Under the pieces are notes generated by a model. That model was given only the letters and a program-made list of their open reading frames with translations. It did no database searches and had not been told where the DNA came from. This document shows, in pieces, positions 2,664 through 63,691 of a stretch of DNA of 64,000 bases; position 1 is the stretch's first letter, and each line of letters starts with the position of its first letter. The translations under genes and the position numbers were made by a program. The DNA lies in IMG/VR virus record IMGVR_UViG_2857083903_000001, positions 1 to 64,000 of that record; one strand, given 5' to 3'. Source of the stretch: a virus (Duplodnaviria > Caudoviricetes).

Positions 2664-2675
2664 GATGGGCCTTCC

Positions 2676-8826: not shown

Positions 8827-8859
8827 CTGAGTCCTGCCTCCCTTCCCTGGTTGTGGCCG

Positions 8860-9240: not shown

Positions 9241-9782
9241 AGGTCGGTCCGGGTGGTGTTCTGCACGCCGTATGCGGCGTTGAACATGGCGTCGGCTTCG
9301 GCGAGGGACCAGGAGTTGAGGAGTTCCTGCGCTTCGGTCTCGGTCATGCCGTCGACGCAGGCGGCGGCGATGAGTGCGGCGGGGAAGGAGTCGGCCCATC
9401 GCTTGCCGTCCTCGGTGTCGGTTTCCGACGGGGCGTGCTGCTCGTAGAGCGCTTCGAGGGCTTGGCGGGGCAGGGCGCGGAACCGGATCGGGATGGACAC
9501 CTCGTCGTACGCCTGCTTGGCGTCGTCGCGGGCCTCGGTGGCGCGCGTGAGGTCGCTGGCCGCTTCGGTGTCCTTGGGGTTGGCCTTGGCGTACTGGGCG
9601 GCGAGGTCGTAGTCCCTCTGGGCGCGCAGGTAGCGGTCTCGGACGCTCTGGTCGTCGCAGACCACGAACACGGTCTCGGCGAGCGCCCGGCTACGCAGGC
9701 GGTCCATCTTGGCGGCCCAGTGCGCGTCGGCGGCGACTGCGGCGGCGGGCGGCTGGGGCTTGGTGCGGGTGGTGCTGGTCAT
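9228..9782 (-). CDS. Tail assembly chaperone (gpG-like)
   Basis: Between major tail and tape measure; ends DLGKG* on a GGGAAAA slippery site; GGAGG RBS. Confidence 0.85.
   Translation of the reverse strand: MTSTTRTKPQPPAAAVAADAHWAAKMDRLRSRALAETVFVVCDDQSVRDRYLRAQRDYDLAAQYAKANPKDTEAASDLTRATEARDDAKQAYDEVSIPIRFRALPRQALEALYEQHAPSETDTEDGKRWADSFPAALIAAACVDGMTETEAQELLNSWSLAEADAMFNAAYGVQNTTRTDLGKG
9234..9240 (-). other. Programmed -1 ribosomal frameshift site GGGAAAA
   Basis: X XXY YYZ heptamer (CTG GGA AAA GGC TGA) at the end of the tail chaperone gene. Confidence 0.8.
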
Positions 9783-9887
9783 GGGGTTGGTCCTCCGTCA
9801 GGGGAAGGGAGACCCGGCCGGACGCCCGCAGGCGCCCCTTCCCGAACGCCAGGGGTGTCCGGCCGGGAGCTGAGAGGGTGCGGGGGG

Positions 9888-10694
9888 TCAGCCGCCGGGT
9901 GTGGTGGTGGCGACCGTGATGGCGGGGCTGGTGCCGCCGGTGAAGCTGCCGGCGGCGGTCATCTGCGGCACGTCGGTGCCGTCGTAGGCGCCGCCGCTGA
10001 AGGTGACCGTGACGGGGCTGCCGGGCAGCGGCCCGCCGGTGCACGTGATGTCGCCGGGTGCGATGTTCGACAGCGCCTCGAGCGCGGACTGCACCGCGGA
10101 CGAGGTCGCGTTGTAGACGATCGCGCTCGTCGTCTGGCCGTTGAAGGTGAGGGTGAACGTGCCGCCGGTCGGGGTGCCGGTGATGGTGACCGTCTGCACC
10201 TCGTCCGTGCCCGACGCCGGGACGGGGGCACCCTGCAGGGGGCGGGAGGTGATGGAGCAGGTCGCCATGAACTTCGCGGCCTCGTTGTCGGCCGTGTACT
10301 GCGGCGACTGAGAGGCGACCCGGATCGGGAACACGTCCATCGAGTTGTTGCCGGGGATGTCGCCCTTGCGGAGGATGACGACGTATCCGGTGGTGCCCTT
10401 GGCAAAGAGCTGCTCGAGGTCGGCGTCCTCCTCGTCCTCGTAGAAGGTGAAGGAGCTCGAGTCGGCCTTGTCGCTGCCGGGGATGGTGGCGTCGTAGGTG
10501 TCCGCCATGTCCGGGGTGTCGATCTCTTGATTGGTGACCGTCCACCCGTCCATCGCGGCGATGAAGGCGGTGAAGTCGGTGCCCGCGCCCAGTTCACTGC
10601 GGGTCGGGATCATCGTGGTGGCGGCGATGGTCGGCACGAAGTAGAACTTCGACGTGCCGCGCCTCATGTACTTTTTCGGCTTGGCGAGCAGCAT
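9888..10694 (-). CDS. Major tail (tube) protein with C-terminal accessory domain
   Basis: GTSKFYFVPTIA...FTFYED...DVFPIRV tail-tube motifs; C-terminal EVQTVTITGTPTGGTFTLTF domain. Confidence 0.85.
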   Translation of the reverse strand: MLLAKPKKYMRRGTSKFYFVPTIAATTMIPTRSELGAGTDFTAFIAAMDGWTVTNQEIDTPDMADTYDATIPGSDKADSSSFTFYEDEEDADLEQLFAKGTTGYVVILRKGDIPGNNSMDVFPIRVASQSPQYTADNEAAKFMATCSITSRPLQGAPVPASGTDEVQTVTITGTPTGGTFTLTFNGQTTSAIVYNATSSAVQSALEALSNIAPGDITCTGGPLPGSPVTVTFSGGAYDGTDVPQMTAAGSFTGGTSPAITVATTTPGG

Positions 10695-10828
10695 TGGGGC
10701 CCCTTGACGTCCGGGGCCTGCTCCGCGTGGTGCGGTCAGCCCCTGTACACGTGATGTGTGGTCGGCCACCTCTTGGTGGCGTCCGCGTGGGGTCCCGCCG
10801 CGGTGCGGTCCGTGCAGTGCCTGACAGG

Positions 10829-11278
10829 TCAGGCCGGGGTCCAGGCGATGCTGAACCGCTGCACATAGCTGATGATCCCATCTGCGGGGTCACTCGTTCC
10901 CCCCGGTTCCGTGTCCAGCGTCCGGGCCATGTCCCTGTAGCCGGGCACGGTGAGCGGATACCGCCAGCGACCCGTGACCGAGTCGCGGAGCAGGAACGCT
11001 TGCCGGGCTTTGTCCGCCATCCACTCGGCCTGGTCTTCCAGGCCGGCGGAGCTGAGGACGGTGGGGTCGGGCCCGGACACAGAGGTGACCTGGTAGACGG
11101 TGAGTGCGTCCTCATTCAGGTCGGCGAAGGGGGCGCCGGACAGGCTGGTGTCGACGCTGTACAGCAGGTAGTAGGGCGCCTGCGCCCCATTGGGTGCGTG
11201 CCCTCGCCCGACGGGCAGTCCAGTGGCCTCTGCGAGGAGAGCGGCAACCGCCCGGCTGGCGGCCAGCCTGCTGATCAC
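10829..11278 (-). CDS. Tail terminator / completion protein
   Basis: GTG overlapping upstream stop; PYYLLY and YQVTSV motifs; immediately upstream of major tail. Confidence 0.65.
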   Translation of the reverse strand: MISRLAASRAVAALLAEATGLPVGRGHAPNGAQAPYYLLYSVDTSLSGAPFADLNEDALTVYQVTSVSGPDPTVLSSAGLEDQAEWMADKARQAFLLRDSVTGRWRYPLTVPGYRDMARTLDTEPGGTSDPADGIISYVQRFSIAWTPA

Positions 11279-11661
11279 TGCAACACCTCCATGACCGCGA
11301 ACTTCATCTGCATCTTCAACGTCTGCTCGATGAACGGCAGCGCCGGCTGCACGTGGGCAAACGGAGGCTGCGCATAGGAGCGGCCCAGGCTGTCCGTGCC
11401 GGTGAAGCCGAACTCCAGCCGGCGACCATAGGGAAGTTCGGTACCGATGGTGCACAGTGCACTGTTCACCCATCGGCGGTCCACCGACTTCCACGAGTTC
11501 CGGTAGGCGCCCGTGATGACGTTCGGACCGGGCCGGCCGGACGCGTTGCCCCGGATCTTGGCTATGCCCAGGGTTCCGGTGTGTGTGACGCCGCGCTGCA
11601 CGGCGGGGCCGACTCGTTTGGCGGCTGCCTCGAGGCGTTCGGCGAGTTCGTCGGGGGTCAC
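11275..11661 (-). CDS. HK97 gp10-like neck / tail completion protein
   Basis: SGRPGPNVITGAYRNSW, YGRRLEFG, PPFAHVQPA motifs. Confidence 0.8.
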   Translation of the reverse strand: MTPDELAERLEAAAKRVGPAVQRGVTHTGTLGIAKIRGNASGRPGPNVITGAYRNSWKSVDRRWVNSALCTIGTELPYGRRLEFGFTGTDSLGRSYAQPPFAHVQPALPFIEQTLKMQMKFAVMEVLQ

Positions 11662-12110
11662 GGGAGTCTCGATCCGGCGGTCTGGTTCTGGTCCAGGGCG
11701 GTGATGCGGATGACTTCGGTGGTGGCGGCGATACCGGGGTCTTGGCACAGCCAGGACCGGCCGATGAGGTCGGCCTGCTGGGGGTTGTGGACCTGTACGA
11801 CGGTGACGATGGCGTCCTTGGGGGCGATCGGCGCGGTGAGCGGGGTCATGAGCCGGTACCGGGAGTGGGTTTCCTGCGCCCACGGCTGGCCCGCGTTGGG
11901 TATGGACGACACCTCGGACTGGGCGATACCGCCCTGCACAGCACCAGGCCCCTCGTAGAGCACGTCGCCGGGCGGGTATTCGAGATGGCCGGTGGTCTCG
12001 TTGAGGACCGCGTCCTCGGTGGGCGGGAGCGTAATCCGGACGGTGTCCACGCACAGGTTGGTTTCGATCCATCGCCGGGCGGGGGCGAGGATGTCGTCTA
12101 GCCCAGGCAT
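11658..12110 (-). CDS. Head closure / stopper protein (DUF6093-like)
   Basis: DTVRIT...LYEGPGAVQ motif; synteny in neck module. Confidence 0.7.
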   Translation of the reverse strand: MPGLDDILAPARRWIETNLCVDTVRITLPPTEDAVLNETTGHLEYPPGDVLYEGPGAVQGGIAQSEVSSIPNAGQPWAQETHSRYRLMTPLTAPIAPKDAIVTVVQVHNPQQADLIGRSWLCQDPGIAATTEVIRITALDQNQTAGSRLP

Positions 12111-12496
12111 CAGACGCCCCTCCCCTGCGCCCAGTCGGCCAGGGTGGCGAGGATCGCTTCGGTGACGGAGGTCTTGCCGTCGCCGAGGTCCGGCCGGTCG
12201 AGGGCGGCTGTTTGGACGGCGGCCGGGTTGATGCTGGCGAGGAACGCGGCGATCTCCTCGCCGATGTCCTGCTGCTGGTCGGCGACCGTGACGCGGGCGA
12301 GCCCCTCCCACGTAGCGGCGGCGGGTTCCCGGACGTGGAGGACGAGCATGGGCAGCGCGTTGGCGATGTCGTGCTCTAGCCGATAGCCAACGACCTGGCC
12401 GCGCGGGAGGGGGGTGCCGTCGATTCGGACGGTGGCGTCACCGGGCTGGGCGTCGATCCGGACACCGTGCGCAGACGGCTCGGCGGGCTTGGTCAC
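12110..12496 (-). CDS. Hypothetical protein
   Basis: 128 aa ORF translationally coupled on both sides. Confidence 0.65.
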   Translation of the reverse strand: MTKPAEPSAHGVRIDAQPGDATVRIDGTPLPRGQVVGYRLEHDIANALPMLVLHVREPAAATWEGLARVTVADQQQDIGEEIAAFLASINPAAVQTAALDRPDLGDGKTSVTEAILATLADWAQGRGV

Positions 12497-13029
12497 TCGC
12501 TCTCACCGCTTCGGTGTGCCAGGTAGGAATCCCATCCTTCCCAAGCAGGGTCGGGCTCAAGTTCGACGATCTGTGGGACGGCTCGCTCAAACCGCACAGC
12601 TTCGCAGGTCCGTTCATCGAACGCCCTATTTCCTGCCTCATCGACGTAGAACTGCGTGAAGCAAATGATCTGGTTCCCGATGTGGCCTCCTCGATCCCGC
12701 CACTCCAAGCGGATATCTCCTCGTTCAACGAGGCGGGGATCAACTCCGTTGGCTCTCAACCACTTCGCCACGCGGTCCCGTTGTTCTGCCGTCAGGGGGA
12801 CACCTTTCTGCGTGACCCTCATGGAGCAGTTCACCACCGGATGAGGCACATGCCAGTCTTCCTCCAGCATCTTGTGGGAGACCCTGGTGGAGGAGACTTC
12901 GAAGCCACTGCTTCCATCGGCTGCTCCGACCCACGTCTCCACTGATGCCCGAACCACCGACATGCCGTCTGGCACCTCTACTTCGAGTCCGAGAGCGTCT
13001 AGTTCAGAGCCGATCCTCTTCTTGCTCAT
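12493..13029 (-). CDS. Hypothetical protein, atypical codon usage (moron-like)
   Basis: ATG at 13029 overlaps upstream TGA; visibly more A/T at third positions than its neighbours. Confidence 0.6.
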   Translation of the reverse strand: MSKKRIGSELDALGLEVEVPDGMSVVRASVETWVGAADGSSGFEVSSTRVSHKMLEEDWHVPHPVVNCSMRVTQKGVPLTAEQRDRVAKWLRANGVDPRLVERGDIRLEWRDRGGHIGNQIICFTQFYVDEAGNRAFDERTCEAVRFERAVPQIVELEPDPAWEGWDSYLAHRSGESE

Positions 13030-13874
13030 GCTGGGTCTCCTGAGACAAGGCCGCGGCGGCCGTTGAGGTCGGGGCGGGGAATCAGCTCGCGTACACACCC
13101 GTGATGGGCCACGGGGTAGGCCGCGCAGTCGTCGATGGATCGGATCGTGCCGTCAGCGTGATCGGTGTCCTGATGTCCAGTCCAGCCGCATTCGTCGCCG
13201 TCCCGGACCTGCATCCACTCGGCCTCCAGCTCTAGCCGGGCGGTGTTGATGGCGCCATGGTTGGCGGTGACCGCGCCCTGATAGGTGAGCGCGGACCGTG
13301 CCCAGTCCTTCACCGGGTGCCGGGCCTGGTCGCTGTAGACCACGGTGGACAGCGGATGATCAGCAGCAAGTCGGGGGGCGTCGATCCCGGCGTGGTTGCG
13401 GCCGAGGGTGACGGTGCGGGTGGCTTCCTGCGCGGCGCGGGCGAACGCCTGCGCCCGGCGTACCGCCTCCTGGATACGGGCCACCAGATCGACGTAGAAG
13501 ATGCTGGTGAGCCCGGTGAGGGCGGCCTGGTGGTCGGCTGTCCACCGGAACAGGGTGATGTCCCGGTTGGCGCGGCGCAGGGCGCGGAGGGCGCCGTCGC
13601 GGTAGGCGGTGGGAAGGTCTTGGGCGGCCCAGCGTTCGGCGACCGCGCGGGTGAGGCGGTCGAACTCGCCGACCTCGTGGTGGAACGCGGTGATGTAGCT
13701 GTTGATGCGGGTGGTGGCGCCGAGGCCGGGCCGTATCCGTTCCAGGGTGCGCAGCAGCCTGTCCTGGGCGACGGTGAGCCGGTTCCACTGCCGGGTAAGT
13801 TCCAGGACGGCGGCGGTGATGAGTGTGGTGAGTTCGCTGCGGTCGTCGCGGGTCTGCTGGGTGGGGGTGCTCAT
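13026..13874 (-). CDS. Phage minor capsid / head morphogenesis protein
   Basis: C-terminal RDGDECGW.GH...YPVAHHGCVR metal-binding motif of minor capsid/MuF-related proteins. Confidence 0.7.
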   Translation of the reverse strand: MSTPTQQTRDDRSELTTLITAAVLELTRQWNRLTVAQDRLLRTLERIRPGLGATTRINSYITAFHHEVGEFDRLTRAVAERWAAQDLPTAYRDGALRALRRANRDITLFRWTADHQAALTGLTSIFYVDLVARIQEAVRRAQAFARAAQEATRTVTLGRNHAGIDAPRLAADHPLSTVVYSDQARHPVKDWARSALTYQGAVTANHGAINTARLELEAEWMQVRDGDECGWTGHQDTDHADGTIRSIDDCAAYPVAHHGCVRELIPRPDLNGRRGLVSGDPA

Positions 13875-14200
13875 CGGCGGGGCCGTTCCTGCAGCAGGAT
13901 GACGCCGATGTGGTCGCGTGTGTCGGACGCGGTGGGGTCGTCGGGTGCGGGGGGTTCCCCGGCCTCGAGGGCGGTGATCTTCCGTTCGAGTGCGGCCAGG
14001 TTCGCGGTGAAATTCACGGCGACGACGTTGGTGACAGTGACCCCGGTCGGCTGAGCCAGCATGTCGGCATACCGTTCCCGCAACACCTCAAGGGCTACTG
14101 CGCGGGCGGTCCCGAGTCGTAGATACCGGGTGTTCAGGTCGGAAAGGTCGGTGGCCCTGCCGAGCTGGGAGAGCAGCCACGCCTGTACTGCACTGTCCAT
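13871..14200 (-). CDS. Head-tail adaptor-like protein
   Basis: 109 aa helical protein after capsid genes; AGGAG RBS. Confidence 0.6.
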   Translation of the reverse strand: MDSAVQAWLLSQLGRATDLSDLNTRYLRLGTARAVALEVLRERYADMLAQPTGVTVTNVVAVNFTANLAALERKITALEAGEPPAPDDPTASDTRDHIGVILLQERPRR

Positions 14201-14295
14201 CAGGTGGCTCCTTCACGGGCGTGTGGGGGTGGGAAGGGGTTGGGGTGTGCGGGCCCGCTCTGGCGCCCCACCAGGGGGCGGGCCCGCACACTCCC

Positions 14296-14613
14296 TCAGT
14301 TGCCGCTGCTGCCCTCGTCAGCGGCGTCCCGGCCCCCGGACCGGCTGGTGGCCGCACTCTTGCGTGCGGCGGTCTTCTTGGCCGAATGGGCGGCCTTGGT
14401 GTCCTGACTGGCGTCGTCCTGGTCGCCGCCAGCAGGGCTGTGGTCGCTCTTAGCGGGCTTGGACGAGCTCGGGACCTCGCCGTCGACCCAGGCGGCCGGG
14501 TTCGTCACCAGGGCGGCCAGCTCCGGCTCCGGGCAGGTGCCCGCAGCCAGTTCGACCGTCTGATGGGTTTCCGGGTCGTTCACGTACACCGTGGATGCGA
14601 GCTGGGCGGCCAT
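14296..14613 (-). CDS. Small head-associated protein
   Basis: Directly follows major capsid; LVTNPAAW motif, low-complexity tail. Confidence 0.6.
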   Translation of the reverse strand: MAAQLASTVYVNDPETHQTVELAAGTCPEPELAALVTNPAAWVDGEVPSSSKPAKSDHSPAGGDQDDASQDTKAAHSAKKTAARKSAATSRSGGRDAADEGSSGN

Positions 14614-14616
14614 AGG

Positions 14617-15681
14617 TCACCACACCGTCGCGGCGATGTGGATGTCCGGGGTGTACATGACCGGCAGCGCGGCCGCGGAGCACTTCGTGTACACCTGCGG
14701 CGGGTCGTCCTGGTAGCCGCGGGTGACGACGATCCCGGGGGCCTCCTCGCGGAGGATGGCCGGGTTGGCGCCCTGGGACAGGATGAGGCCGTCGGCGGTG
14801 AGACCGTACTGGGTCTCGGCCCACTGGGACGGGTTGGGCGGCAGCAGGAAGAACATGTTCTCCGGCAGGGCCCTCACGTCGGTGCCGTTGTCCAGCTCGA
14901 TCTTCACGTCGTAGCGCTCGATCGGGGGGAGGCCGTAGCGGGCGCGGACGACGTCGACCTCGTTGGGGGCGAGGACGGCGGTGGGGATGGTGCTGGCGGA
15001 GTTGACCGAGCCGTAGTAGGCGGCGCGGTAGGAGTCGTTCGCCATCATCTGCGCCCACCCCTTGTAGGAGGTGAGGGCGCGGGCCGGGGCGGGGGCGCCG
15101 GAGGAGCGGAGGACTTCGATCCAGCGCATCTCGTCGCCGAGGATGTCGGCCGTGGGGTCGGTCCACGCGGTGGGTGCGGTCGGCATGTTCGCGGCCGGCA
15201 CCTTGTAGTCGGCCTCGAGGGTGAGGTTGTTCTCGCCGACCAGGGTGAACTTGCCGTCGGTGAGGAGGTCGCCGGCTGCGAGTTCGAGGCGCTTCTTGAT
15301 GGACAGGACGTGCGCGGCAACGTCGTCGTAGACGGCCTGGACGAGGTCGCGGCTGTCCATGCCGCGGTCGAGGTTCTCCAGGATGGTCTCGAACTCGCCG
15401 ACGATGTACTTCTGGCCGAGCGGGAGGAGCTTGCCGGAGGTGGCGAACTGCGTGATCTCACGCGTGGCCACCTTGGTCTGGGCGTCCCATGCGCGGTAGT
15501 TCGCGGCGGCGACTCGTCGCCGGTTGCCGCGGGTCTCCCAGCGGACAGAGTTGATGGTTCGCTCGGGCATCACCGACAGGGTGAGTGCGTAGTCCGACGG
15601 GGTCTGGATTTCCCGGACGAATGCCTGGATTTCCGTCGGGTTCAGGTCGCGGAGCAGGAGCTCCAGCATGTCATTGGGCAT
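14617..15681 (-). CDS. Major capsid protein (lambda gpE-like family)
   Basis: 354 aa; YRAWDA, LPLGQK, RLELAAGDLLTDGK, AAALPV motifs; after scaffold and decoration genes. Confidence 0.9.
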   Translation of the reverse strand: MPNDMLELLLRDLNPTEIQAFVREIQTPSDYALTLSVMPERTINSVRWETRGNRRRVAAANYRAWDAQTKVATREITQFATSGKLLPLGQKYIVGEFETILENLDRGMDSRDLVQAVYDDVAAHVLSIKKRLELAAGDLLTDGKFTLVGENNLTLEADYKVPAANMPTAPTAWTDPTADILGDEMRWIEVLRSSGAPAPARALTSYKGWAQMMANDSYRAAYYGSVNSASTIPTAVLAPNEVDVVRARYGLPPIERYDVKIELDNGTDVRALPENMFFLLPPNPSQWAETQYGLTADGLILSQGANPAILREEAPGIVVTRGYQDDPPQVYTKCSAAALPVMYTPDIHIAATVW

Positions 15682-15696
15682 GGCGGTGTCTCCTGA

Positions 15697-16431
15697 TCAG
15701 ACCTTGTAGACGAACTGGGTGTTGGAGCCGGCCGGGGCGTCGGCGGGGTCGAAGGCGACCGGGAGCTTGGCGACGTCGATCTGGCCGTGGACCATCAGCG
15801 GGGCGGCGACCTTGGTGGAGCCGGGGTGGAAGGCGACCTCGGTGAACAGGAACCCGCGGAAGGTCTGGGTGCCGTCGCTGGCGGTGGCGGTGCCGCCGGC
15901 GGTGGTGGTGGCCATGGTGACGCCGGGGGTGCTGCCGCCGGTGAGGGAGGCGGTGGCGGTGATGGATGCGACGTTGTCGCCGAGGTACTGGCCGCCGAAC
16001 GTGAGGGTGTAGGGGCCGCCCGCGTTGCCGGTGACCTTGATGTCGCCGGGGTTGACGTTGGACAGCGCCTCAAGTGCGGCCTGGACGGTCGCGGCGGTGG
16101 CGTTGTAGGCGATGGCGCTGGTGGTCTGCCCGGAGAACGTGAGGGTGAACGTGCCGCCGGTGGGTCCGCCGGTGATGGTGGCGGTCTGGACCTCGTTGGT
16201 GACCGGGCTGTACGGCTCGAACAGCTTGGTCGTGGCGTTCTGCGCCAGGGGGATGCCGGACTTCAGCTTCCGCTCCGGCTGGTAGGCGGACGCCTCGAGC
16301 CAGTGCAGGTTCTGGTCGAACTGGGTGAGGTCGAGGGTGACGGTCTGGTTGGCTTCGATGCCGAGCATGCTCATGAGCCACGGGCGGCCGACAGCGAGCG
16401 TCTCGGTGCTGGTGTACGGCTGGATGTCCAC
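15697..16431 (-). CDS. Head decoration protein with inserted accessory domain
   Basis: LKSGIPL...GFLFT...HGQID..KLP decoration motifs interrupted by an EVQTATITGGPTGGTFTLTF domain. Confidence 0.8.
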   Translation of the reverse strand: MDIQPYTSTETLAVGRPWLMSMLGIEANQTVTLDLTQFDQNLHWLEASAYQPERKLKSGIPLAQNATTKLFEPYSPVTNEVQTATITGGPTGGTFTLTFSGQTTSAIAYNATAATVQAALEALSNVNPGDIKVTGNAGGPYTLTFGGQYLGDNVASITATASLTGGSTPGVTMATTTAGGTATASDGTQTFRGFLFTEVAFHPGSTKVAAPLMVHGQIDVAKLPVAFDPADAPAGSNTQFVYKV

Positions 16432-16538
16432 GCCGTAGCCCCTTTCGCGATGTCACGCGGGTGTGTGGTGAGGGCACCAGGTGGTGGTGCCGTCCACGGG
16501 GGGTGCGGGCGTGGTCCCAAGTCGTTCGGTGGAGCTGG

Positions 16539-17330
16539 TCAGCTTGCGGTGCGCAGGCCCATGGCTTCGGCGCGGGCGCGGGCGGCGTCCTTGACTGCGT
16601 CCTTCCCGGCTGTGGGCGGGCGCGGGGGGCCGCCGGCGGCGGGGCCTCCGGAAGGGGCCGGGGGCAGTGCCTGGTGGACTGTGCCGCCGAAGAGTTCGGT
16701 ACGGCGTTCCTTCAGCTTGTCGGCGGCCTCACTGATCGCGGCGTCGTCGGCGTCGTCCGCTACCCGGATCAGGGCGGTGGCGTCGTCGAGGTCGTCGCCG
16801 GTCGCGCCGAGCTTGACGAGCGCGGCCCGTATGCGGGTGTCGCGGTCTCGCTTGGCGGCATCGGCTTCACGCTGGGCGGCGGCGTCGATGCGGGCCTGGA
16901 GTTCCTGCTCGCGCCGGGTGAGTTCCTCGGTGCGCCGCTGTTCCTCGGAGAGCTGGGCTTGGCGTGCCTGTTCGGCCTGCTTGAACAGGTTGCCGAACTG
17001 GGTGGGTTCGAAGGAGTCCGGGTCGAGGCCGGCGGCTTCCGCGATGGTGCGGAAGGCGGCGCGACGGCCCTCTTCCTTCTCTTCGGACATCATCTTGTTC
17101 AGCCGTCGCTGGGTGAAGGAGACCTTCTCCTCCTCCGGGTCCGCCGGGTTGACGGGAGGCACGTGGATGGCGGGGACTGCCTGCGGGCGGCCGGCGAGGT
17201 CTGCCGGGGTGGGCGCGGCCGGTGCGGGCGGGGTGCCGCCGTCGTTGTAGAACACCGCGAGACCGTCCACACCTGTGTAAGGGTGGGCCCAGGCGGTGGC
17301 GGGGCGGGGCGGCTGCGTGGGGCGACGCAT
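16539..17330 (-). CDS. Capsid scaffolding protein
   Basis: Coiled-coil, charge-rich, FTQ motif, ELFG, Pro-rich end; GGGAGG RBS; between portal and decoration. Confidence 0.8.
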   Translation of the reverse strand: MRRPTQPPRPATAWAHPYTGVDGLAVFYNDGGTPPAPAAPTPADLAGRPQAVPAIHVPPVNPADPEEEKVSFTQRRLNKMMSEEKEEGRRAAFRTIAEAAGLDPDSFEPTQFGNLFKQAEQARQAQLSEEQRRTEELTRREQELQARIDAAAQREADAAKRDRDTRIRAALVKLGATGDDLDDATALIRVADDADDAAISEAADKLKERRTELFGGTVHQALPPAPSGGPAAGGPPRPPTAGKDAVKDAARARAEAMGLRTAS

Positions 17331-17356
17331 CGGTGACAGTCCTCCCATGGACAGTT

Positions 17357-17407
17357 CAGGCCCCGCGCCTGAGATCAAGGACACCACAGAAGTCACGATG
17401 TGTTCCC
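17357..17407 (-). promoter_or_regulatory. Late-type promoter GGGAAC-N18-TGTCCT plus AGGCGCGGGGCCTG box (scaffold/capsid)
   Basis: Same motifs and identical spacing as the copies at 19303-19353 and 22552-22602. Confidence 0.7.
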
Positions 17408-19285
17408 TCCGCTCCCTCCGGGCTGCGCGTCCGGCTGGTTGGTGGGCGTGTTGTCGGAGGGCAGACCGGGGAGTTGCGGCGCCGGCGGCGGGGTGGGGTC
17501 GGGGTTGATGTCGACGCCGAGGTAGTCGGCGACGAGCTTCGTGTCACCGGTGGCGTCGGCGAGCTGCCGGGCTGCTTCGAAGGAGCGGGATTCGATCTGC
17601 TTGACCTCTGCCTGAGCGTCGCTTATGGGCCAGCCCGCGTCCTGCAGCATGCGGATCGCGGTCTCGAGGCTGATCACCTTGGCCAGGTAGGCGGTGGTGA
17701 CCTGGTCGAGGACGGCAGCCTTGTCCGTCGGCGTGTAGGGGCCGCGGGTCAGCTTGGCCGGCAGGACGGGCAGCCCGGCCCAGTCGGGGTGCTGGCCTGC
17801 GTGGAAGAGACGCTGCACGAACTTGGGTATGAGCCGGTCGGCGTGGTCGCGGGCGAGCCGCATCCCGGCAATGTTGGAGTCGAGCGGGCCGAGGGACAGT
17901 TCGAGGGCATACCCGGAGGGCACCTTGGAGGGGTCCATGGTGCCCAGGGCGACGGCGGGGAGCCGGACGACGTTGGCTGCCCGGTCGTGGAGGTCGTGGC
18001 CGTGTTCGCGGAGTTCACGGAGGGCGGCGGAAGTGTCGACGGCGGTCATCTTGCCGTTCTCGCCGAGGGTGAACAGGGCGCCGGGGCCGACGTTGAACCG
18101 CTGATTGGAGTCGTGCACACCAGAGATGGCGATCATCGGGAGGCCGGTGGTGCCGGACGCGCGGGCAGAGTCGGTGTCCGACGCGGCAAGCTCGTCGAAC
18201 ACCTGCAGCGCCTTCGCCAGCGACGACTGGCCCCAGTGCTCGCCGGCGGCGGGCACCGTGTTGGGCAGGTGGATAACCGAGATGAAGTCCTGGTAGATGT
18301 CCAGCCGGTCCAGCACTTCGCCCTGGGAGTTGCTGTTGAAGTGGGCCTTCTCCATGGGCAGGGAGTCGACGTCGATGTCACCGGTGAGGTCCTCGAGGAG
18401 CCAGATCCCGTCGGTCAGGTAGCACGTCTTGTAAGAGGGCTGTTCCGACCACGGGTACATGCGGGAGATCGCCCCAAGGTGGTCGACCCGGTCGCCGCGG
18501 CCGAGGACCGGGATGGCGGGTTCGTCGTCGGTGGCTTCGGTGAGGACTGGGGCGCGGACGGGCCGCCCTTGCCGGTCGACCCCGGAGGCGGTGGCGGGCC
18601 TAATCCAGTCCAGCTCGTAGGTGATGCGGCGCAGCCGGGCGGGCAGGCGGCGTTTCTTGTCCTCGGGGAGTTCCCACGCGAAGTGGATTCGGGTGGGGTA
18701 GTCGGTACCGTCGGAGTCCTCGTCGATGACGGGGAAGTAGAAGCCGGGGTCGTAGGTGGTGATGCGGGGGCGCTGCTTGTCGGCGTCCCACCACAGGTGG
18801 AGTACCCCGTCGCCGAGGCCGACGGCCTTGCGTTCGGCCTGGAGGAGCCGCATGGGCAGGAGTTCCTCGTCGGCCCACTCGCGGAGGAGTTCCTGCACGC
18901 GTTCGGCCTGGACGGCCTGCGGGTCGGGCTGGTCGTCGTCGGCGTGTTCGGCGCCGGGCACGGTGATGGACTGCTCGCGGCCCAGGACGTGGGAGACGAG
19001 GGTGTCGACGAACATGGCGGGGTCGCCGTACTCGCGGCGTTCGCGGGCCTCAGCCCCGTCACGGATCTCGGCGAGTTCCCCGGCCTGGTTCTGGTCGTAG
19101 GCGGCGAGGAGTTTGTAGGAGGCGAGCCGGCGTTCGTCTTCGGCGGGGACCCACATGGCGGCGGCTTCGGGGAAGGCGCGGCGTTGTGGCATGCCGGTGG
19201 TGGGGTCGGCAAACAGCGGCTTGTAGTTGAACATCGACCAGTTGTCGATGCGCAGCGCGTGCCGCAGCCCGGTCATGAGGCCCAC
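17393..19285 (-). CDS. Portal protein
   Basis: 630 aa directly after TerL; GLGDGV, HLPN...WGQS, PSGYAL, ISLETA SPP1-like portal motifs. Confidence 0.85.
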   Translation of the reverse strand: MGLMTGLRHALRIDNWSMFNYKPLFADPTTGMPQRRAFPEAAAMWVPAEDERRLASYKLLAAYDQNQAGELAEIRDGAEARERREYGDPAMFVDTLVSHVLGREQSITVPGAEHADDDQPDPQAVQAERVQELLREWADEELLPMRLLQAERKAVGLGDGVLHLWWDADKQRPRITTYDPGFYFPVIDEDSDGTDYPTRIHFAWELPEDKKRRLPARLRRITYELDWIRPATASGVDRQGRPVRAPVLTEATDDEPAIPVLGRGDRVDHLGAISRMYPWSEQPSYKTCYLTDGIWLLEDLTGDIDVDSLPMEKAHFNSNSQGEVLDRLDIYQDFISVIHLPNTVPAAGEHWGQSSLAKALQVFDELAASDTDSARASGTTGLPMIAISGVHDSNQRFNVGPGALFTLGENGKMTAVDTSAALRELREHGHDLHDRAANVVRLPAVALGTMDPSKVPSGYALELSLGPLDSNIAGMRLARDHADRLIPKFVQRLFHAGQHPDWAGLPVLPAKLTRGPYTPTDKAAVLDQVTTAYLAKVISLETAIRMLQDAGWPISDAQAEVKQIESRSFEAARQLADATGDTKLVADYLGVDINPDPTPPPAPQLPGLPSDNTPTNQPDAQPGGSGGNTS

Positions 19286-35719: not shown

Positions 35720-37108
35720 GTGTCCCCCAGCATCCCCGCACAGCAACACGACCCTGCCGATGACACCGAACCGTGGGACGCCAAGCCCGACGGATGGAGC
35801 CGTACGCCCCCGCGAGACCTGGACGCCGAGCAGTCCGTCCTCGGGTCCCTGCTGCTGTCCGGGAGCCCCGGCAGCGCGTCGTCCCGGTACTTTGCCGAGG
35901 TCCTCGAGACCGGTCTCGTTGCCGAGGAGTACTACCGGCCCGCGCACCAGACCATCCACCGCGCGATCTGTGACCTCCACCAGGCCGGCGAGGCCGTGGA
36001 CCCGGTCACGGTCGCCGACAAGCTCACCGAACGCGGCGAGATCACCCGTGCCGGCGGGCGTGCCTACCTGCATGCCTGCGTGCAGGCCGCTCCGACGGTC
36101 GCCAACGGCCCGTACTACGCCGAGATCGTCCGGGCCAAGGCGTACCGGCGGGCGGTCATCGACGCGGCGCAGCGCGTCCTGGAGTACGCGTACAGCGAGG
36201 AAGGCGACGAGAACGAAGTCCGGGACCTGGTCGAGCGGCAGCTCACCGAAATCATCTCGGGCATCTCCGGACTGCACGAGGCGCCCCCCACCGTCGGTGA
36301 CCTCTACCTCGACTTCGTGTCTGACCTCGAGGACATCCAGAACGGGCAGCAGATCGGCCTGCCCTACGGCTTCGAGGACCTGGACACCCTGACCTCGGGC
36401 ATGCGGCCGGGCAACGTGAGCGTGGTGGCGGCACAGTCCGGCGTGGGCAAGTCCACGTTCGCCCTGAACGCCGCGGTCGCCGCCGCAAAGACAGGCGCGC
36501 GGGTGATGTTCTCCTCGCTGGAAATGAGCAGCACCGAACTCATGCAGAAGATCGCCGCCGCGGAGGGGAAGATCGCCCTGCACCACCTGACGCACCAGGG
36601 CGGGCTTACAGCCGAGGGCTGGGAGACGGTGAGGCGTCTTGGTCCGGAGCTGTTCCAGACGCTGCCGTTGCGGGTCTACCGGCCCGACGGCGCGTCCCTT
36701 GGCGACATCGCTTCAGCGGCACGGGCCTGCGCCCGCGACGGCGGCCTGGAACTCCTCGTCGTGGACTACCTCCAGCTCGTCGAGGTCGAGCAGTCCCGCA
36801 GCATCACCCGCGAGCAGGCCGTGGCGTCCGTGTCCCGCGGTCTGAAGAACCTGTCGGTGGAGCTGGGCTGCCACGTCATCGCCCTGTCGCAGCTCAACGA
36901 CGACGGCTTGATGCGCGAGTCTCGGGCGATCAAGAACGATGCCTCGGTTGTCATCAAGGTCGAGCGGCCGGACGCGGACGAGCCGGAGTCAGCGCGGGCC
37001 GGCGAAGTCGACCTGGTGGTCGAGAAGAACAGGTTCGGGCCCACTGCCTGTGTCACCGTGGCTGCGCAGCTCCACTACTCGCGCTTCGTGGACATGACGC
37101 AGACCTGA
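35720..37108 (+). CDS. dnaB: Replicative DNA helicase, DnaB family
   Basis: AEQSVLGSLL N-domain, Walker A QSGVGKS, SLEMS, VVDYLQL, LSQLN, KNRFGP. Confidence 0.95.
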   Translation: MSPSIPAQQHDPADDTEPWDAKPDGWSRTPPRDLDAEQSVLGSLLLSGSPGSASSRYFAEVLETGLVAEEYYRPAHQTIHRAICDLHQAGEAVDPVTVADKLTERGEITRAGGRAYLHACVQAAPTVANGPYYAEIVRAKAYRRAVIDAAQRVLEYAYSEEGDENEVRDLVERQLTEIISGISGLHEAPPTVGDLYLDFVSDLEDIQNGQQIGLPYGFEDLDTLTSGMRPGNVSVVAAQSGVGKSTFALNAAVAAAKTGARVMFSSLEMSSTELMQKIAAAEGKIALHHLTHQGGLTAEGWETVRRLGPELFQTLPLRVYRPDGASLGDIASAARACARDGGLELLVVDYLQLVEVEQSRSITREQAVASVSRGLKNLSVELGCHVIALSQLNDDGLMRESRAIKNDASVVIKVERPDADEPESARAGEVDLVVEKNRFGPTACVTVAAQLHYSRFVDMTQT

Positions 37109-41293: not shown

Positions 41294-42295
41294 GTGAAGA
41301 TCCCGCCCGCGCTCCTCGCCACACTGAAGGACCGCGCCCACACCGACGGCAACCGGCTCACCCTCACCGGCCCCCGCCTGGACCCGCGCACCTACCAGCA
41401 GATCAACGAGATCCTTGAAGCCGTCGGCGGCCGATGGACCTCCAGCGAGGGCGCCCACCTGTTCCCCACCGACGCCGACACCGCCCTGGCCCCCGTGTAC
41501 GCCACCGGCAGCGTCGTCACCCTGCGGGAGAAGCGGCAGTCCGCCCAGTACTTCCCCACCCCGAAGCCCGTCGTCCAGCGGCTCATCGACCTCGCCAAGC
41601 TCACGCCGGGCGTGCGGGTGCTGGAGCCGTCCGCCGGCTCGGGCGCCATAGCCGGTGCCGTGACCGAGGCAGGCGCAACCGTGGACTGCATCGAGCGCGA
41701 CCCTGGCTACGCCGCCGTCCTCGCCGACGCCGGACACCAGGTGCACGCCGCCGACTTCCTCACCGTGCCCGCCGAAGCTGCCTACGACCGGGTGGTGATG
41801 AACCCGCCCTTCACCAAGGGCGCCGACATGCAGCACGTCGAGCACGCGCTCAGGTTCCTCAAGCCCGACGGGCTGCTGGTGTCGGTCATGTCATGGACAG
41901 TGACCACCGAGTCCCGCGCCACCGCGAAGTTCCGGACGCTCGTCGAAGCCCGAGGCGGCACGGTCGAGGCGGTCGGCAAGGGCGCGTTCCGGGAGTCCGG
42001 CACCGACGTGCCCACCGTCATCGTCACCATTCCCGCCACCCGGCCGGCCGATGCGCAGCCCACCACCTGGCCCACCCGCAAGACGCCGCCGGCCACGGAG
42101 TCAGAGTTCGAGGACCCGGCCGCTATCGCTGCCGAGATCATCGCCAGCCTGAAGGAAGCCACCGCCCAGTTCGAGAAGGTGGCCGCCGCCCTCGAACGGC
42201 CCGCACCGCCAACCCCGGCCCGCCCGGTGGACGTTGTGCCGCTTCCCCAGCGCACGCAGGACCAGCTGTTCTTCGACTTCGACGGCGCCGCGTAG
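41294..42295 (+). CDS. Orphan amino (N6-adenine type) DNA methyltransferase
   Basis: YFPTP, VLEPSAGSG (motif I), VMNPPF (motif IV), FRESGT. Confidence 0.85.
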   Translation: MKIPPALLATLKDRAHTDGNRLTLTGPRLDPRTYQQINEILEAVGGRWTSSEGAHLFPTDADTALAPVYATGSVVTLREKRQSAQYFPTPKPVVQRLIDLAKLTPGVRVLEPSAGSGAIAGAVTEAGATVDCIERDPGYAAVLADAGHQVHAADFLTVPAEAAYDRVVMNPPFTKGADMQHVEHALRFLKPDGLLVSVMSWTVTTESRATAKFRTLVEARGGTVEAVGKGAFRESGTDVPTVIVTIPATRPADAQPTTWPTRKTPPATESEFEDPAAIAAEIIASLKEATAQFEKVAAALERPAPPTPARPVDVVPLPQRTQDQLFFDFDGAA

Positions 42296-54095: not shown

Positions 54096-55018
54096 GCTGC
54101 TTCCTCCATCTCGTTCTGCTTCAGGGTTCGTTCACGCGGCTGGTACACACGCCGCCACATCCGCCGGCCTTCCAGAGCGGCCGCTTTCTTCGCCCGCTCC
54201 CACCGCTTCTCCGCGGCCACTGGGGACAGGTCGAGCTTCTCTGCGATCTCGGCTGCTGTGTCGTTGGTCCACTCGAACAGGTGGAGCAGCACCTCACGCT
54301 TGGCGTCCTCGGTGAGGACCACGGACTCACCCATCAGCCAGCGGGCGGCCAGGTTGTCGCCATCCGTAGCTACCGGCTCGGGGCCCTCGGTGACTGGTAC
54401 CGCCGTAGGGTCGTCGATGGTGTCGTCATCCCAGGCCAGCGGAGGAGCCCATCCGTGGCGCTCGGCCACAGTCCGGGTCTTCCACGACGTCCCAGTTCGC
54501 ATCGACATGCGGTCGTACGCTGCACGGACTTGCTCATCCATACCGACCTTGATGGTGGGCCACCGGCCAGCAGCCAGCGCGCTTACGGCATCCCGTGAGA
54601 TTCCGGCGGCGGATGCTATCTCGTGGTTGAAGTGCCCCAGCGCGTACAGGGCACGAACCCGGCGGACAGCACCGACCGCCGGAACGTCGCCCAGAGAGAC
54701 TCGGACATCGAGCGGAACGGCCAGGACCTTCGTAGCGGTACGCGACCATGTTGTTTTCTGCTTGCCGTCCATCAGGCGGCGCACGGTCGACGGTTCGATT
54801 CCTGCTTCGCGGGCGATCTGCAAGGAGGTGAGTCCGCGGGCGGTCAGCGCTTTGACGTGAGTCACTACGGGGTCAGCCGGGACACTTCGCGGCTTGCCGG
54901 CGAGACGGTCCAGTTTGCGTTCGGCGTCCGCGCGGGTGGCAGCGACGGTGCACGGCCGGCACCGGCATCCGTAGGCGTACCGGTTCGCCGTGGCGTGCGG
55001 GGCGATCTGTCGACTCAT
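54092..55018 (-). CDS. Multi-HTH DNA-binding protein with N-terminal Cys motif
   Basis: [26 protein letters not shown]. Confidence 0.75.
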
Positions 55019-55680
55019 GCCGCCAGTTCCTGTCCTGCTCGTTCCGCAGCCCGCTTCCACGCCTGCCTCGCCGCCTGCACCTGCTCCGGCGACACCCCCA
55101 GGTGGAGGGCGATGTTCGTCCGGGACACACCCATGGCCGTCAGCTTCTGCACCAACTGCTGGTGGTCGTCGTGGATCTGAACGGACATCAGGCGGCCGTC
55201 ACCAGACCACGGCTGCGCCACCAGCGCGGCACGGCAGCCCAGCCACCACATCGCCACCCGGATCGTCACCGCCGACGCGGTCACCCCTTGTCCACGGAAC
55301 TCGGTGACGACCGCGGCGAGCGACCAGTCCCGCAGCTTCCACAGCAGATCCCCGAACGTCTGCGGCAGCACCAGCATCCCGGCCTGCTTCAGGTCAGGGT
55401 GCTCGCCGAGGAGGGCGTGGACACGCAGGGCCTGTCGCTGCAGGTGGGTGAGACCGCCGGCGACACCCCACGGCTGGTAGGGGCCTTCCTCCCAGCGGGT
55501 GGCGTCGGCCAGGCAGAGGGTGCGGACGGGGCAGCGAAGGCAGGCGGCCTGTACTTCGGCCTGGTCGCCGCGTTCGTCGGAGTAGATGGTGTCGATGTCG
55601 AGGTTCTGGCAGGCGGCTCGGGTGCGCCAGTCGGCAGACCGGGTGGCGGGAGTTGTGTCGTGGCGGGTCGCGGTGGTCAT
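55015..55680 (-). CDS. WhiB-family Fe-S transcription factor with C-terminal HTH extension
   Basis: WRTRAAC...CLRCPVRTLC...WGVAGG. Confidence 0.85.
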   Translation of the reverse strand: MTTATRHDTTPATRSADWRTRAACQNLDIDTIYSDERGDQAEVQAACLRCPVRTLCLADATRWEEGPYQPWGVAGGLTHLQRQALRVHALLGEHPDLKQAGMLVLPQTFGDLLWKLRDWSLAAVVTEFRGQGVTASAVTIRVAMWWLGCRAALVAQPWSGDGRLMSVQIHDDHQQLVQKLTAMGVSRTNIALHLGVSPEQVQAARQAWKRAAERAGQELAA

Positions 55681-56348
55681 CGGTGGTCTCCGGTGAGGGT
55701 GTACAGGCGGATGATCGCGCCGGGCTCGGGCAGGGCGTCGGGGTGCTCGTCGGGGTAGACCTTGCGGTTGTGGTTCTCGATGACGCGTCCGTCGTCTTCC
55801 CAGGCTTTGGCTGTGGTGATGGCGTCGTAGGTGGAGCGTTCGAGCTTGTCGATGTCGGGGCTGACTGCGGGGTAGGTGCGGCGGCGTTTGGGGGCGCGGC
55901 CGGGCTTGGGCATGGTGAAGGTGATGTCGGCTCGTACGGGTCCGACGAGGGGCTGGGCGCCGTCGAGGGCTTCGGTGATGGCTGCGGTGACCTTGTCGCG
56001 CCAGGGCTTGACCTTGGCGGATGACTCCCGCATGAGGGGGATGGCTTTGCCGGTCTTGCGGCTGCGGCCCCAGCCGACGGGGGACTTGCTGCCCTGAGGT
56101 CCGGCGAGCCCGTACACGGTGACGGTGAGAGCTGGCTCGGGTTCCCAGTCGTAGGTGCTCTGGGGGGTGTGGTCGTAGAGGGCTGCGTGCTGGAGGGTGG
56201 CGGCGAGCTGCTGGGCTTCTTCGGTGGTCATGCGGAGGTCGCCTATGGGGGTGGCGACGCGGATGTAGGTGATGCCGAGGTTGGTGCCTTCGATCTGTTC
56301 GCCGGCGAGGTAGACGCTGAAGGATTCGTCGGGGGTCGTGGTGGTCAT
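55677..56348 (-). CDS. RusA-like Holliday junction resolvase
   Basis: PQGSK, PDIDKLERST.DA, WEDD.RV. Confidence 0.85.
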   Translation of the reverse strand: MTTTTPDESFSVYLAGEQIEGTNLGITYIRVATPIGDLRMTTEEAQQLAATLQHAALYDHTPQSTYDWEPEPALTVTVYGLAGPQGSKSPVGWGRSRKTGKAIPLMRESSAKVKPWRDKVTAAITEALDGAQPLVGPVRADITFTMPKPGRAPKRRRTYPAVSPDIDKLERSTYDAITTAKAWEDDGRVIENHNRKVYPDEHPDALPEPGAIIRLYTLTGDHR

Positions 56349-61746: not shown

Positions 61747-62889
61747 TCATGCTTGTCGAGCCTTGACTGCCGCCTGAGTCTCCTCATCACGGCCGAGGCC
61801 AAGGAAGACGGTCGCCCGATCTTCGGCGGCCATCTTCCGCAAGAGCAAGAAGAGAGCCTCGCCGCCATGCTCGTAGGGGAAGCGCGGTGCCTGATTCTCC
61901 GCTTCCGCCGCAGTGGTGTCACGCGGCTCCGGAATCGACTCCGCGGTGCGGGTCTTGCCCAGTTCCGGCCCGCCGTCGCTGGGGTTGGGGTGTGCCGGTA
62001 CGGCCGGCTTGGGAGCCGGTGCCGCCTCCGCTGGCGGGTATACCGCGGTATACGCGTCGGCCTCCTGCTGGGCTGGTACCTCCACTTGGGCCGGCGCCTC
62101 CACCTCAGGTCTGCTGGCAACCGCAGGCTCCACGGGAGGCGTCTCGGGCACCGTGTATACCGCGGTATACGCCGCCGGGGTCTCGGCGACGCCCGGCCGC
62201 TGCTGCTTGGTGGGGCGGGGCTGCTCCTGGTCCAGCTTCCAGGTGGCGTACTGCTCCTCCGGCGGCATCGCCGCATAGCGGCGCATCTCCCGGAACGCAG
62301 TCAGCTGGCCGTCGAGAACAAGCTGCACCATCTCGTCGGTGAGCCGAAGCAGGCCGATGCGCTGGTTGAACCACTGCTTCGACTTGCCCATGGCCTTGGC
62401 CGCGGCGGACTGGTTGCCGTCGTGGAGGGTGAGCATGGCGTGCAGGCCGTTGGCTTCCTCGATGGGGTTGAAGTTGGCGCGCTGCACGTTCTCGGACAGC
62501 ACCGCGGCGAGGAACCGGATACGGGACTCGGTGAGGTCGTGCCGGATCAGAAGATCCAGACTCTCCAGGCCGACGTTCACGGCCGCGCGCCAGCGGCGTT
62601 CACCAGCAGCCATCACGTACCGGCAGGTGTCCGGGAGCTCGTCGGCGTGCTCCGGATAGAGCTTGAGGTAGCTGGCTTTGGGGACGGCTACGCAGGGCTG
62701 GAGCTGCCCGGCCCGCATGTCTTCGCCGAGCTCGGTGAGTTCGGTTTCGTCGAAGTTCCGTCGCGGGTTCAGCGGGGTGGGGGCGACGGTGTTCGGGTGT
62801 ACGTGGAGCAGGTCGGGTCGGCTGGCGCCGGGCACGGTCTCGACTTTGCTGGTGGCGAGGGAGGCGAGGGAGATGCGCTTGCCGGACAT
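61747..62889 (-). CDS. parB: ParB/Spo0J partition protein
   Basis: NPRRNF, GQLQP, AGERRWRAA (CTP-binding box), ENVQR, HTH; ATG overlaps parA TAA. Confidence 0.92.
   Translation of the reverse strand: MSGKRISLASLATSKVETVPGASRPDLLHVHPNTVAPTPLNPRRNFDETELTELGEDMRAGQLQPCVAVPKASYLKLYPEHADELPDTCRYVMAAGERRWRAAVNVGLESLDLLIRHDLTESRIRFLAAVLSENVQRANFNPIEEANGLHAMLTLHDGNQSAAAKAMGKSKQWFNQRIGLLRLTDEMVQLVLDGQLTAFREMRRYAAMPPEEQYATWKLDQEQPRPTKQQRPGVAETPAAYTAVYTVPETPPVEPAVASRPEVEAPAQVEVPAQQEADAYTAVYPPAEAAPAPKPAVPAHPNPSDGGPELGKTRTAESIPEPRDTTAAEAENQAPRFPYEHGGEALFLLLRKMAAEDRATVFLGLGRDEETQAAVKARQA
62038..62053. promoter_or_regulatory. parS-like perfect palindrome GTATACCGCGGTATAC (copy 1)
   Basis: 16-bp palindrome inside parB. 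Confidence 0.75.
62155..62170. promoter_or_regulatory. parS-like perfect palindrome (copy 2)
   Basis: Identical 16-bp palindrome inside parB. Confidence 0.75.
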
Positions 62890-63551
62890 TAGCGTCGGCC
62901 TCCGTAGCCGCGCTCGAGGGCCAGGCGGAAGTAGTCCTCGCGGGCGCGGAGGGTGGTGCCGTTGTCGGCGTACTGGGTGACGACCTTCCCTTCGGACGCC
63001 GCACGGGTGTGGATCTTGTATCGGCGGATGACGGTCTTCGCGCGGGGCCAGCCCATGGCGTCGATGTAGGCGATGGTGTCGTTGAGGTCGGCAACACCGT
63101 CGCGGGGGTCCCAGGCGTTGATGACGACGGTGTAGGGCAGGCCACGGGGCACGATGACCCGCTCGATGGTGCGGGCGGTCGGGTCGAACGCGAGGGGCTC
63201 GGGGGGCATGGGGACCAGAACGTCGTCGGCGACGTCGAGGGCGGCGGCGAGGATGTGTTCGTTCTCGAGGCTGCCGGGGGTGTCGATGAAGACGTGCTGC
63301 CGGCTGTCGGTGTCGCCGAGGACGTCGTGGGCGACGGCGGCGAGGTTGACGGCGGTGGTGGTCTTGCCGACTCCGCCCTTCTGGTTGCAGATGACGTGGA
63401 TCTGCGCGCCGAGGTTTTTCAGTTCGGCGAGGCTGGCGGGGTCTTCGTGGGCGGCGGCGAAGTCGAAGGGGAGGTCGTCGCCGACGCGGTCGGCCCACCA
63501 GATGGTTGACCCTTGGGGGTCGGTGGACACGACGAGGATGCTGGAAGGCAT
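62889..63551 (-). CDS. parA: ParA partition ATPase with permuted motif order
   Basis: NQKGGVGKTT (deviant Walker A), FIDTPG (Walker B); the VVSTDPQGS (A') segment lies N-terminal to Walker A. Confidence 0.9.
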   Translation of the reverse strand: MPSSILVVSTDPQGSTIWWADRVGDDLPFDFAAAHEDPASLAELKNLGAQIHVICNQKGGVGKTTTAVNLAAVAHDVLGDTDSRQHVFIDTPGSLENEHILAAALDVADDVLVPMPPEPLAFDPTARTIERVIVPRGLPYTVVINAWDPRDGVADLNDTIAYIDAMGWPRAKTVIRRYKIHTRAASEGKVVTQYADNGTTLRAREDYFRLALERGYGGRR

Positions 63552-63675
63552 GGTGCTCCGTTCCGTGTGCTTCCCGGAGGGTTTCCGGTACTCGGACGGG
63601 CCATAGCTTCTCAGATCGGGTGGGTGGGGCTGCTGATTGGGAGGCGGTTTCGGGTTGGGATTTCTGTGCGGGCGT

Positions 63676-63691
63676 GTATACCGCGGTATAC
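63676..63691. promoter_or_regulatory. parS-like perfect palindrome (copy 3) upstream of parA
   Basis: Identical 16-bp palindrome, intergenic. Confidence 0.75.

Follow-up and report, generated by a model that had tools for sequence, protein, structure and literature searches.

A ParA family protein with its Walker A block between the A' and Walker B blocks on a phage-plasmid-like replicon

P-loop NTPases are usually regarded as fixed in the order of their motifs. In GTPases of the YlqF/YjeQ type, which are P-loop NTPases, the motifs have been circularly permuted in nature; to our knowledge, such circularly permuted TRAFAC GTPases are the natural exceptions, and non-circular permutations of a catalytic core are rarities in any family. 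Within the ParA/MinD class, the linear order is Walker A, A', Walker B, written here as blocks A-B-C. The small type-Ib ParAs, proteins of ~210-220 aa encoded in an operon with a centromere-binding partner, have this order, and the canonical ParAs of actinobacterial plasmids (Micromonospora, Salinispora, Actinoplanes, and Pseudonocardia loci) carry the Walker A cassette at the N terminus. The closest known relatives of the protein described here are ParF of TP228 (4dzz, 5u1g), Synechocystis ParA (3cwq), and Soj (2bek), of which ParF pairs with the ribbon-helix-helix protein ParG, as stated in PMC3130281.

The ParA encoded in the present window has in common with ParF, Synechocystis ParA, and Soj the deviant Walker A, A', and Walker B motifs, and shares the size, operon arrangement, and predicted fold of the small type-Ib ParAs. 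It belongs to the same clade as the canonical actinobacterial plasmid ParAs. However, its blocks run B-A-C rather than A-B-C, and its partner is a ParB_N/HTH ParB whereas that of ParF is ribbon-helix-helix.

The replicon, the parAB operon, and the order of the ParA blocks

The window, i.e., the whole stretch of DNA analyzed, comprises bases 1-64000 of the 86,882-bp second contig of the source genome, which has a GC content of 68.7% compared to 71.9% for the chromosome. Searches against PHROGs identified a siphovirus-type structural module with genes for minor tail proteins, Dit, tape measure, major tail, major head, head decoration, scaffold, and portal, in addition to several other genes (Table 1). 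Considering this siphovirus-like module, we regard the 86.9-kb contig as a phage-plasmid like pZL12 and pSAM1 and not as a plain plasmid. Its gene content agrees with the pZL12/pSLE1 type of plasmid-prophage as set out in the available text of PMC4487206.

Table 1. Features of the window referred to in the text; positions are counted from its first base.
Feature	Position	Strand	Description or basis
Siphovirus-type structural module	622-19285	-	PHROGs
Tape measure, 1753 aa	3568-8826	-	PHROGs
DnaB-like helicase	35720-37105	+	PHROGs
DNA methyltransferase	41294-42292	+	PHROGs
WhiB-like and RusA-like genes, adjacent	55018-56348	-	PHROGs
parB, 380 aa plus stop	61747..62889	-	Pfam ParB_N and HTH_ParB
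Palindrome GTATACCGCGGTATAC, 16 bp	62038..62053	.	Inside 3' half of parB
Palindrome GTATACCGCGGTATAC, 16 bp	62155..62170	.	Inside 3' half of parB
Palindrome GTATACCGCGGTATAC, 16 bp	63676..63691	.	Upstream of parA; putative parS/operator
parA ORF, block order B-A-C	62889..63551 including stop (coding 62892-63551)	-	ATG start, 220 aa
Block C, residues 84-220	62892..63302	-	Walker B strand HVFIDTPG and remainder of ParA domain
Walker B, D90-G93	63273-63284	-	Start of block C
Block A, residues 50-83	63303..63404	-	beta1, deviant Walker A, helix alpha1, short linker
Deviant Walker A, K58GGVGKTT65	63357-63380	-	Inside block A
Block B, residues 1-49	63405..63551	-	A' strand ILVVSTDPQ, helix, LPFDF strand, helix
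A' motif, D11 P12 Q13	63513-63521	-	Inside block B
GGAG	63556..63559	-	Candidate ribosome-binding site 4 nt upstream of parA ATG, read from the sequence

As predicted originally, the parA ORF is intact and coupled to parB: the stop codon of parA overlaps the start of parB as TAATG, and the parB product carries ParB_N and HTH_ParB domains, so that parA has directly beside it the gene for a centromere-binding protein found in plasmid parABS systems. A promoter scan upstream of parA found nothing. The 16-bp palindrome GTATACCGCGGTATAC has three exact copies in the whole 6.4-Mb genome, all of them at the parAB operon, and in pSAM1 it is likewise present three times at parAB (two copies ahead of parA and a third within parB). 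These palindromes are candidate ParB sites that would act as parS or as operator. The two copies inside parB encode a repeated YTAVY motif in the low-complexity, C-terminal half of ParB.

Reading the ParA from its N terminus, the A' motif (VVSTDPQ) comes first, followed by Walker A and then Walker B, i.e., the linear order of the ParA/MinD class is not followed. Block B (ILVVSTDPQGSTIWWADRVG...LPFDF, opening with ILVVSTDPQGSTIWWADRVGDDLPFDF), which lies after Walker A in canonical ParAs, here lies before it; block A (IHVICNQKGGVGKTTTAVNLA, opening with QIHVICNQKGGVGKTTTAVNLAAVAHDVL) contains the Walker A sequence NQKGGVGKTT. When the protein was compared by phmmer to the canonical, 209-aa chain of PDB 3cwq, it matched in three stretches that were out of order: residues 53-73 to chain positions 4-24, residues 84-200 to positions 68-182, and residues 5-31 to positions 31-55, the last not significant on its own (-1.3 bits). 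A profile of block B built from the family matched the block that follows Walker A in canonical ParAs, with E-values from 4e-13 to 1e-24. BLASTP against a canonical relative (P0273) aligned blocks A and C colinearly, with a gap of 48 aa falling precisely at the A' block of P0273. Together with the splitting of an NCBIfam match described below, these results bear out the original prediction that A' precedes Walker A and that Walker A precedes HVFIDTPG, and where the proposed check by alignment to ParA profiles had been expected to give two out-of-order local hits, the matches fell into three stretches. The exchange of two adjacent blocks also held, although their sizes were not the ~40-48 aa each that had been estimated but 49 and 34 aa. 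Moreover, a circular permutation arises when the two ends of a chain are joined and the chain is opened at another point; since B-A-C is no rotation of A-B-C, whereas B-C-A is one, the permutation is indeed not a simple circular one.

At the level of family profiles, the protein scored above threshold with Pfam AAA_31 (PF13614; 39.5 bits, threshold 27) and CbiA (PF01656; 34.3 bits, threshold 25.4). In contrast, it scored 72.2 bits against the cut-off of 180 for the equivalog model ParA_partition (NCBIfam NF041546), with the match divided into three stretches because the block order is permuted. This has a practical side, since permuted parA genes that miss this specific profile are given only a generic name, "ParA family protein," by annotation pipelines.

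The motifs themselves are complete. The deviant Walker A motif KGGxGK[ST] is present as K58GGVGKTT65, the A' motif as ILVVSTD11PQ, and the Walker B motif as HVFID90TPG; we take K58 to be the signature lysine, K63/T64 the P-loop residues, D11 the A' aspartate, and D90 the Walker B aspartate. An alignment of 130 B-A-C proteins showed invariant residues in all three blocks: S9, D11, Q13, S15, W19, A20, L27, and F29 in block B; K58, G59, G60, G62, K63, T64, T65, and N69 in block A; and D90, P92, G93, and further positions in block C. For the whole parA gene, dN/dS relative to pSAM1 was 0.17; differences within single blocks (e.g., 2.8 synonymous and 6.2 non-synonymous in block B) were too few for a per-block dN/dS to be interpreted. 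Its score far under the ParA_partition cut-off might suggest a degenerate or regulatory-only ParA, e.g., a co-repressor or adaptor acting with ParB, in which the permutation impairs hydrolysis. We consider this very unlikely, since the low score and its three-stretch split are explained by the order itself, 130 sequences from several genera all retain the signature lysine, P-loop Lys/Thr, A' Asp, and Walker B Asp, and the overall dN/dS is low. Rather, this conservation suggests that the protein is an active ATPase, and catalysis, dimerization, and interplay with ParB/parS presumably proceed as well.

Distribution of the block order and its relatives

Homologues with the same order had been proposed as a check, and they proved to be numerous. 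A block-HMM scan found B-A-C in 119 of the 120 homologues listed (64-96% identical), the exception being P0048, an N-terminally truncated fragment; the source names of the homologues include Streptomyces, Kitasatospora, Actinomadura, Actinoallomurus, Actinocorallia, Embleya, and Yinghuangia. When block orders were assigned by the block HMMs over 356 fetched proteins, 161 were A-B-C, 132 B-A-C, and seven B-C-A, and one was a C-A fragment; the remaining 55 consisted of fragments, proteins in which one of the blocks stayed under the threshold, and a single protein with a split B hit. The best 80 loci on genome contigs comprised 53 B-A-C loci from many species, 26 A-B-C loci, and one cut by a contig end, while 80 metagenome loci included 17 B-A-C and 56 A-B-C. 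A parB homologue lay directly downstream of parA in all 53 of the B-A-C genome loci and in 25 of the 26 A-B-C loci. A search of the source genome found no second ParA of this kind elsewhere in it.

Across a sample of 401 genomes of Streptomycetaceae species, a colinear full-length match of at least 63% identity, judged by match geometry only, was present in 31 (G000 included). "Colinear" matches at 47-58% identity had also been considered as further B-A-C genes, but all four that were fetched proved to be canonical A-B-C, and for this reason only matches of at least 63% were counted. Two of the matches among the 31 genomes (G245:C30:83179-83832 and G272:C43:30834-31487) contain one in-frame TGA each, which may point to pseudogenes or to errors in sequencing. 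Searching 1.84 billion representatives with a profile yielded 3738 proteins at an E-value of 0.001 or better. Among the 150 of these that were listed, only two near-full-length proteins, P0046 and P0137, matched in a single colinear stretch, and most of the others matched in three stretches. P0137 is a divergent B-A-C protein (48% identical overall, 46% in block C) that stands apart from the main B-A-C group in free trees, while an AU test does not reject a single clade; its position may reflect either an old origin of the B-A-C order or a second one.

An artefact, be it a misassembled junction between blocks, an incorrectly assigned start, or a gene that is broken, has to be weighed against these data, and the original prediction had itself named misassembly, or a true upstream start supplying a canonical Walker A, as what would overturn it. 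That more than 100 independent sequences have the same order rules out misassembly; they include the 53 genome loci from many species and two complete records, pSAM1 (a 220-aa gene, 94% identical) and phage-plasmid ZL12 (a 219-aa gene, 65% identical), in both of which the gene is annotated simply as ParA. As for the start, the frame upstream of the parA ATG contains no ATG, GTG, or TTG before the next stop codon, its Pro/Arg-rich translation contains no Walker A or P-loop, and homologues start at the same Met. We therefore give an artefact next to no chance; the B-A-C order is confirmed as real and is due neither to misassembly nor to a wrong start.

Relatives with other orders are close. Canonical A-B-C proteins include P0123, P0125-P0128, P0272, and P0273, and in seven proteins (P0122, P0124, P0140, P0201, P0271, P0274, and P0282) the Walker A cassette comes last, at the extreme C terminus, which gives the order B-C-A. 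All seven of the latter are metagenome-derived and show no variation in their A', Walker B, and Walker A residues, and none was found among the best 80 genome-contig loci or the 80 metagenome loci. Identities of the window ParA in blocks B, A, and C are 67, 82, and 73%, respectively, to canonical P0273, and 56, 76, and 68% to B-C-A P0122. The boundaries of the cassette, (R/Q)IHVI...DVL, are identical in all three forms, and the three orders fall into one clade with an SH-aLRT support of 100 (41 sequences: 24 A-B-C, 10 B-A-C, and 7 B-C-A). Judged from these sequences, one clade of actinobacterial plasmid ParAs carries a single ~30-aa beta1/P-loop/alpha1 cassette at any of three places in the chain.

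Within this clade, the permuted forms were scattered. FastTree distributed B-A-C over six changes and B-C-A over three, and a quick IQ-TREE run gave three and four, respectively. In AU tests, a single clade was rejected neither for B-C-A (p = 0.71) nor for B-A-C (p = 0.88) nor for the two combined (p = 0.80), and the likelihoods of the constrained trees exceeded that of the free quick tree. Since the trees scatter these forms and the AU tests do not reject their unity, we make no claim on the number or order of permutation events.

Predicted structure and a proposed mode of action

Structure prediction, likewise proposed as a check, gave a confident result: with an alignment of 130 sequences, AlphaFold2 modeled the protein as a single ParF/Soj-like domain (pLDDT 93.4, pTM 0.91), in which residues 1-50 had pLDDT values of 86-94. 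The model consists of strand 5-9, helix 15-26, strand 30-33, helix 38-47, strand 50-54, helix 63-78, strand 86-90, and onward. In a sequential alignment, model residues 49-220 were placed on ParF 1-206 (Z 18.4, rmsd 2.1, 161 aligned), a path that omits the A' block of the target and the first 48 residues of the model. Further fold matches were found to Soj (Z 16.4), 3cwq (Z 16.2), and MinD (Z 15.1), as well as to MipZ, and the protein is thus predicted to have the three-dimensional fold of ParA/Soj/MinD. The original prediction had suggested a functional rewiring of the P-loop fold; this appears apt for the connectivity of the chain but not for the fold, which is predicted to be that of a normal ParF/Soj-like domain.

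A single alignment ran through blocks B and C, placing model residues 1-220 on Vibrio cholerae ParA2 141-400 (180 aligned, Z 11.7, rmsd 3.5), as would be expected if block B also occupies its canonical place; in the remaining ParA alignments, the path always went through A and C, and residues 1-48 stayed unaligned. For a B-C-A relative, the model was based on an alignment of only seven sequences and had a pLDDT of 77.1; its residues 4-191 (blocks B and C) aligned to ParF 28-206 (Z 15.7, rmsd 3.0, 174 aligned). The one sequential alignment to ParA2, at a modest Z, and transitivity by way of the B-C-A model suggest that block B lies beside the P-loop, which would bring D11 near it. In the ParA fold, the Walker B strand adjoins the P-loop strand. 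Because of this adjacency, alpha1 would be linked to Walker B by a simple beta-alpha-beta crossover, and the neighboring strand is all that the end of block B would have to reach.

Permuted proteins are prone to segment swapping. Conceivably, then, the ParA is active but its block B works in trans, the 49 N-terminal residues completing the site of the partner in a domain-swapped dimer, with a changed quaternary mechanism; that residues 1-48 were left unaligned in nearly all of the sequential comparisons would fit such an arrangement. However, the monomer model packs residues 1-50 with good confidence, the ParA2 alignment passes through B and C in a single chain, and the B-C-A model has B and C placed as in ParF. 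Hence, we consider an exchange of this kind quite unlikely.

Taken together, the protein is likely to function as the partition ATPase of a Streptomyces phage-plasmid of the pZL12/pSAM1 type, with a chain whose connectivity is permuted. As a member of the ParA class, it would serve as the small, type-Ib-like partition ATPase of the 86.9-kb replicon, with the ~30-aa beta1/P-loop/alpha1 cassette, normally N-terminal, inserted after the A' block and ahead of the Walker B strand. In the predicted ParF/Soj-like alpha/beta domain, each of the three blocks would occupy its customary place, so that the active site would be assembled as usual from K58, K63/T64, D11 (contributed by the N-terminal strand), and D90. 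The protein would then act as any ParA, forming an ATP-dependent sandwich dimer that binds the nucleoid non-specifically and whose ATPase may be stimulated by ParB bound to the 16-bp palindromes flanking and within the operon. As to origin, we favor a scheme in which the Walker A cassette was partly duplicated to give A-B-A-C, after which the N-terminal copy would have been lost by way of a new start codon; the B-C-A sister form may have arisen by duplication-fusion and truncation. No intermediate with two Walker A cassettes occurred among the 356 fetched proteins.

Comparison with known permuted proteins and related plasmids

By its motifs, predicted fold, and operon the protein is a ParA, yet it stands outside the linear order that defines the class. 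As such, it would be a rare example from nature of an enzyme core whose segments are rearranged, with the ATP-binding loop in mid-chain and a fold predicted to be normal. We lean slightly toward the broader view that the beta1/P-loop/alpha1 unit is a relocatable cassette, found N-terminally, in the middle (more than 100 members), and C-terminally in one clade with its catalytic residues intact. If all three forms are active, the ParA/MinD class would have its first described natural series of permutations, a non-circular one among them. The clade would then provide a natural test bed for the limits on connectivity of the P-loop core and for effects on folding, cross-talk between ParAs, and plasmid incompatibility. 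A widespread family of presumably working ParAs is permuted, and its close canonical and circularly permuted relatives are built-in controls, so that three connectivities of one fold could be compared with regard to folding, ATPase kinetics, stimulation by ParB, and the incompatibility of co-resident plasmids.

Full-text literature searches, whose coverage left out most subscription journals, found no description of a permuted ParA. In the available text of a 2026 preprint that surveys the ParA clade, the word "permuted" is applied to FHA domains, and that of PMC4487206 just names the ParAs of the related plasmids. The YlqF/YjeQ GTPases differ from the present protein on two counts, being TRAFAC proteins with a circular permutation, whereas the window ParA is of the SIMIBI/ParA type and its B-A-C order is non-circular. 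Closer at hand, the B-C-A permutants also start with the A' block and have the same cassette boundaries (IHVI...DVLG), but carry the cassette at the C terminus, unlike the window ParA. Among the closest known counterparts are the ParAs of pZL12 (pZL12.17c), pSAM1, and pSLE1, which are annotated only as "ParA" but belong to the same B-A-C family, with identities of 65%, 94%, and about 67%, respectively, and are likewise encoded on replicons of 86-90 kb.
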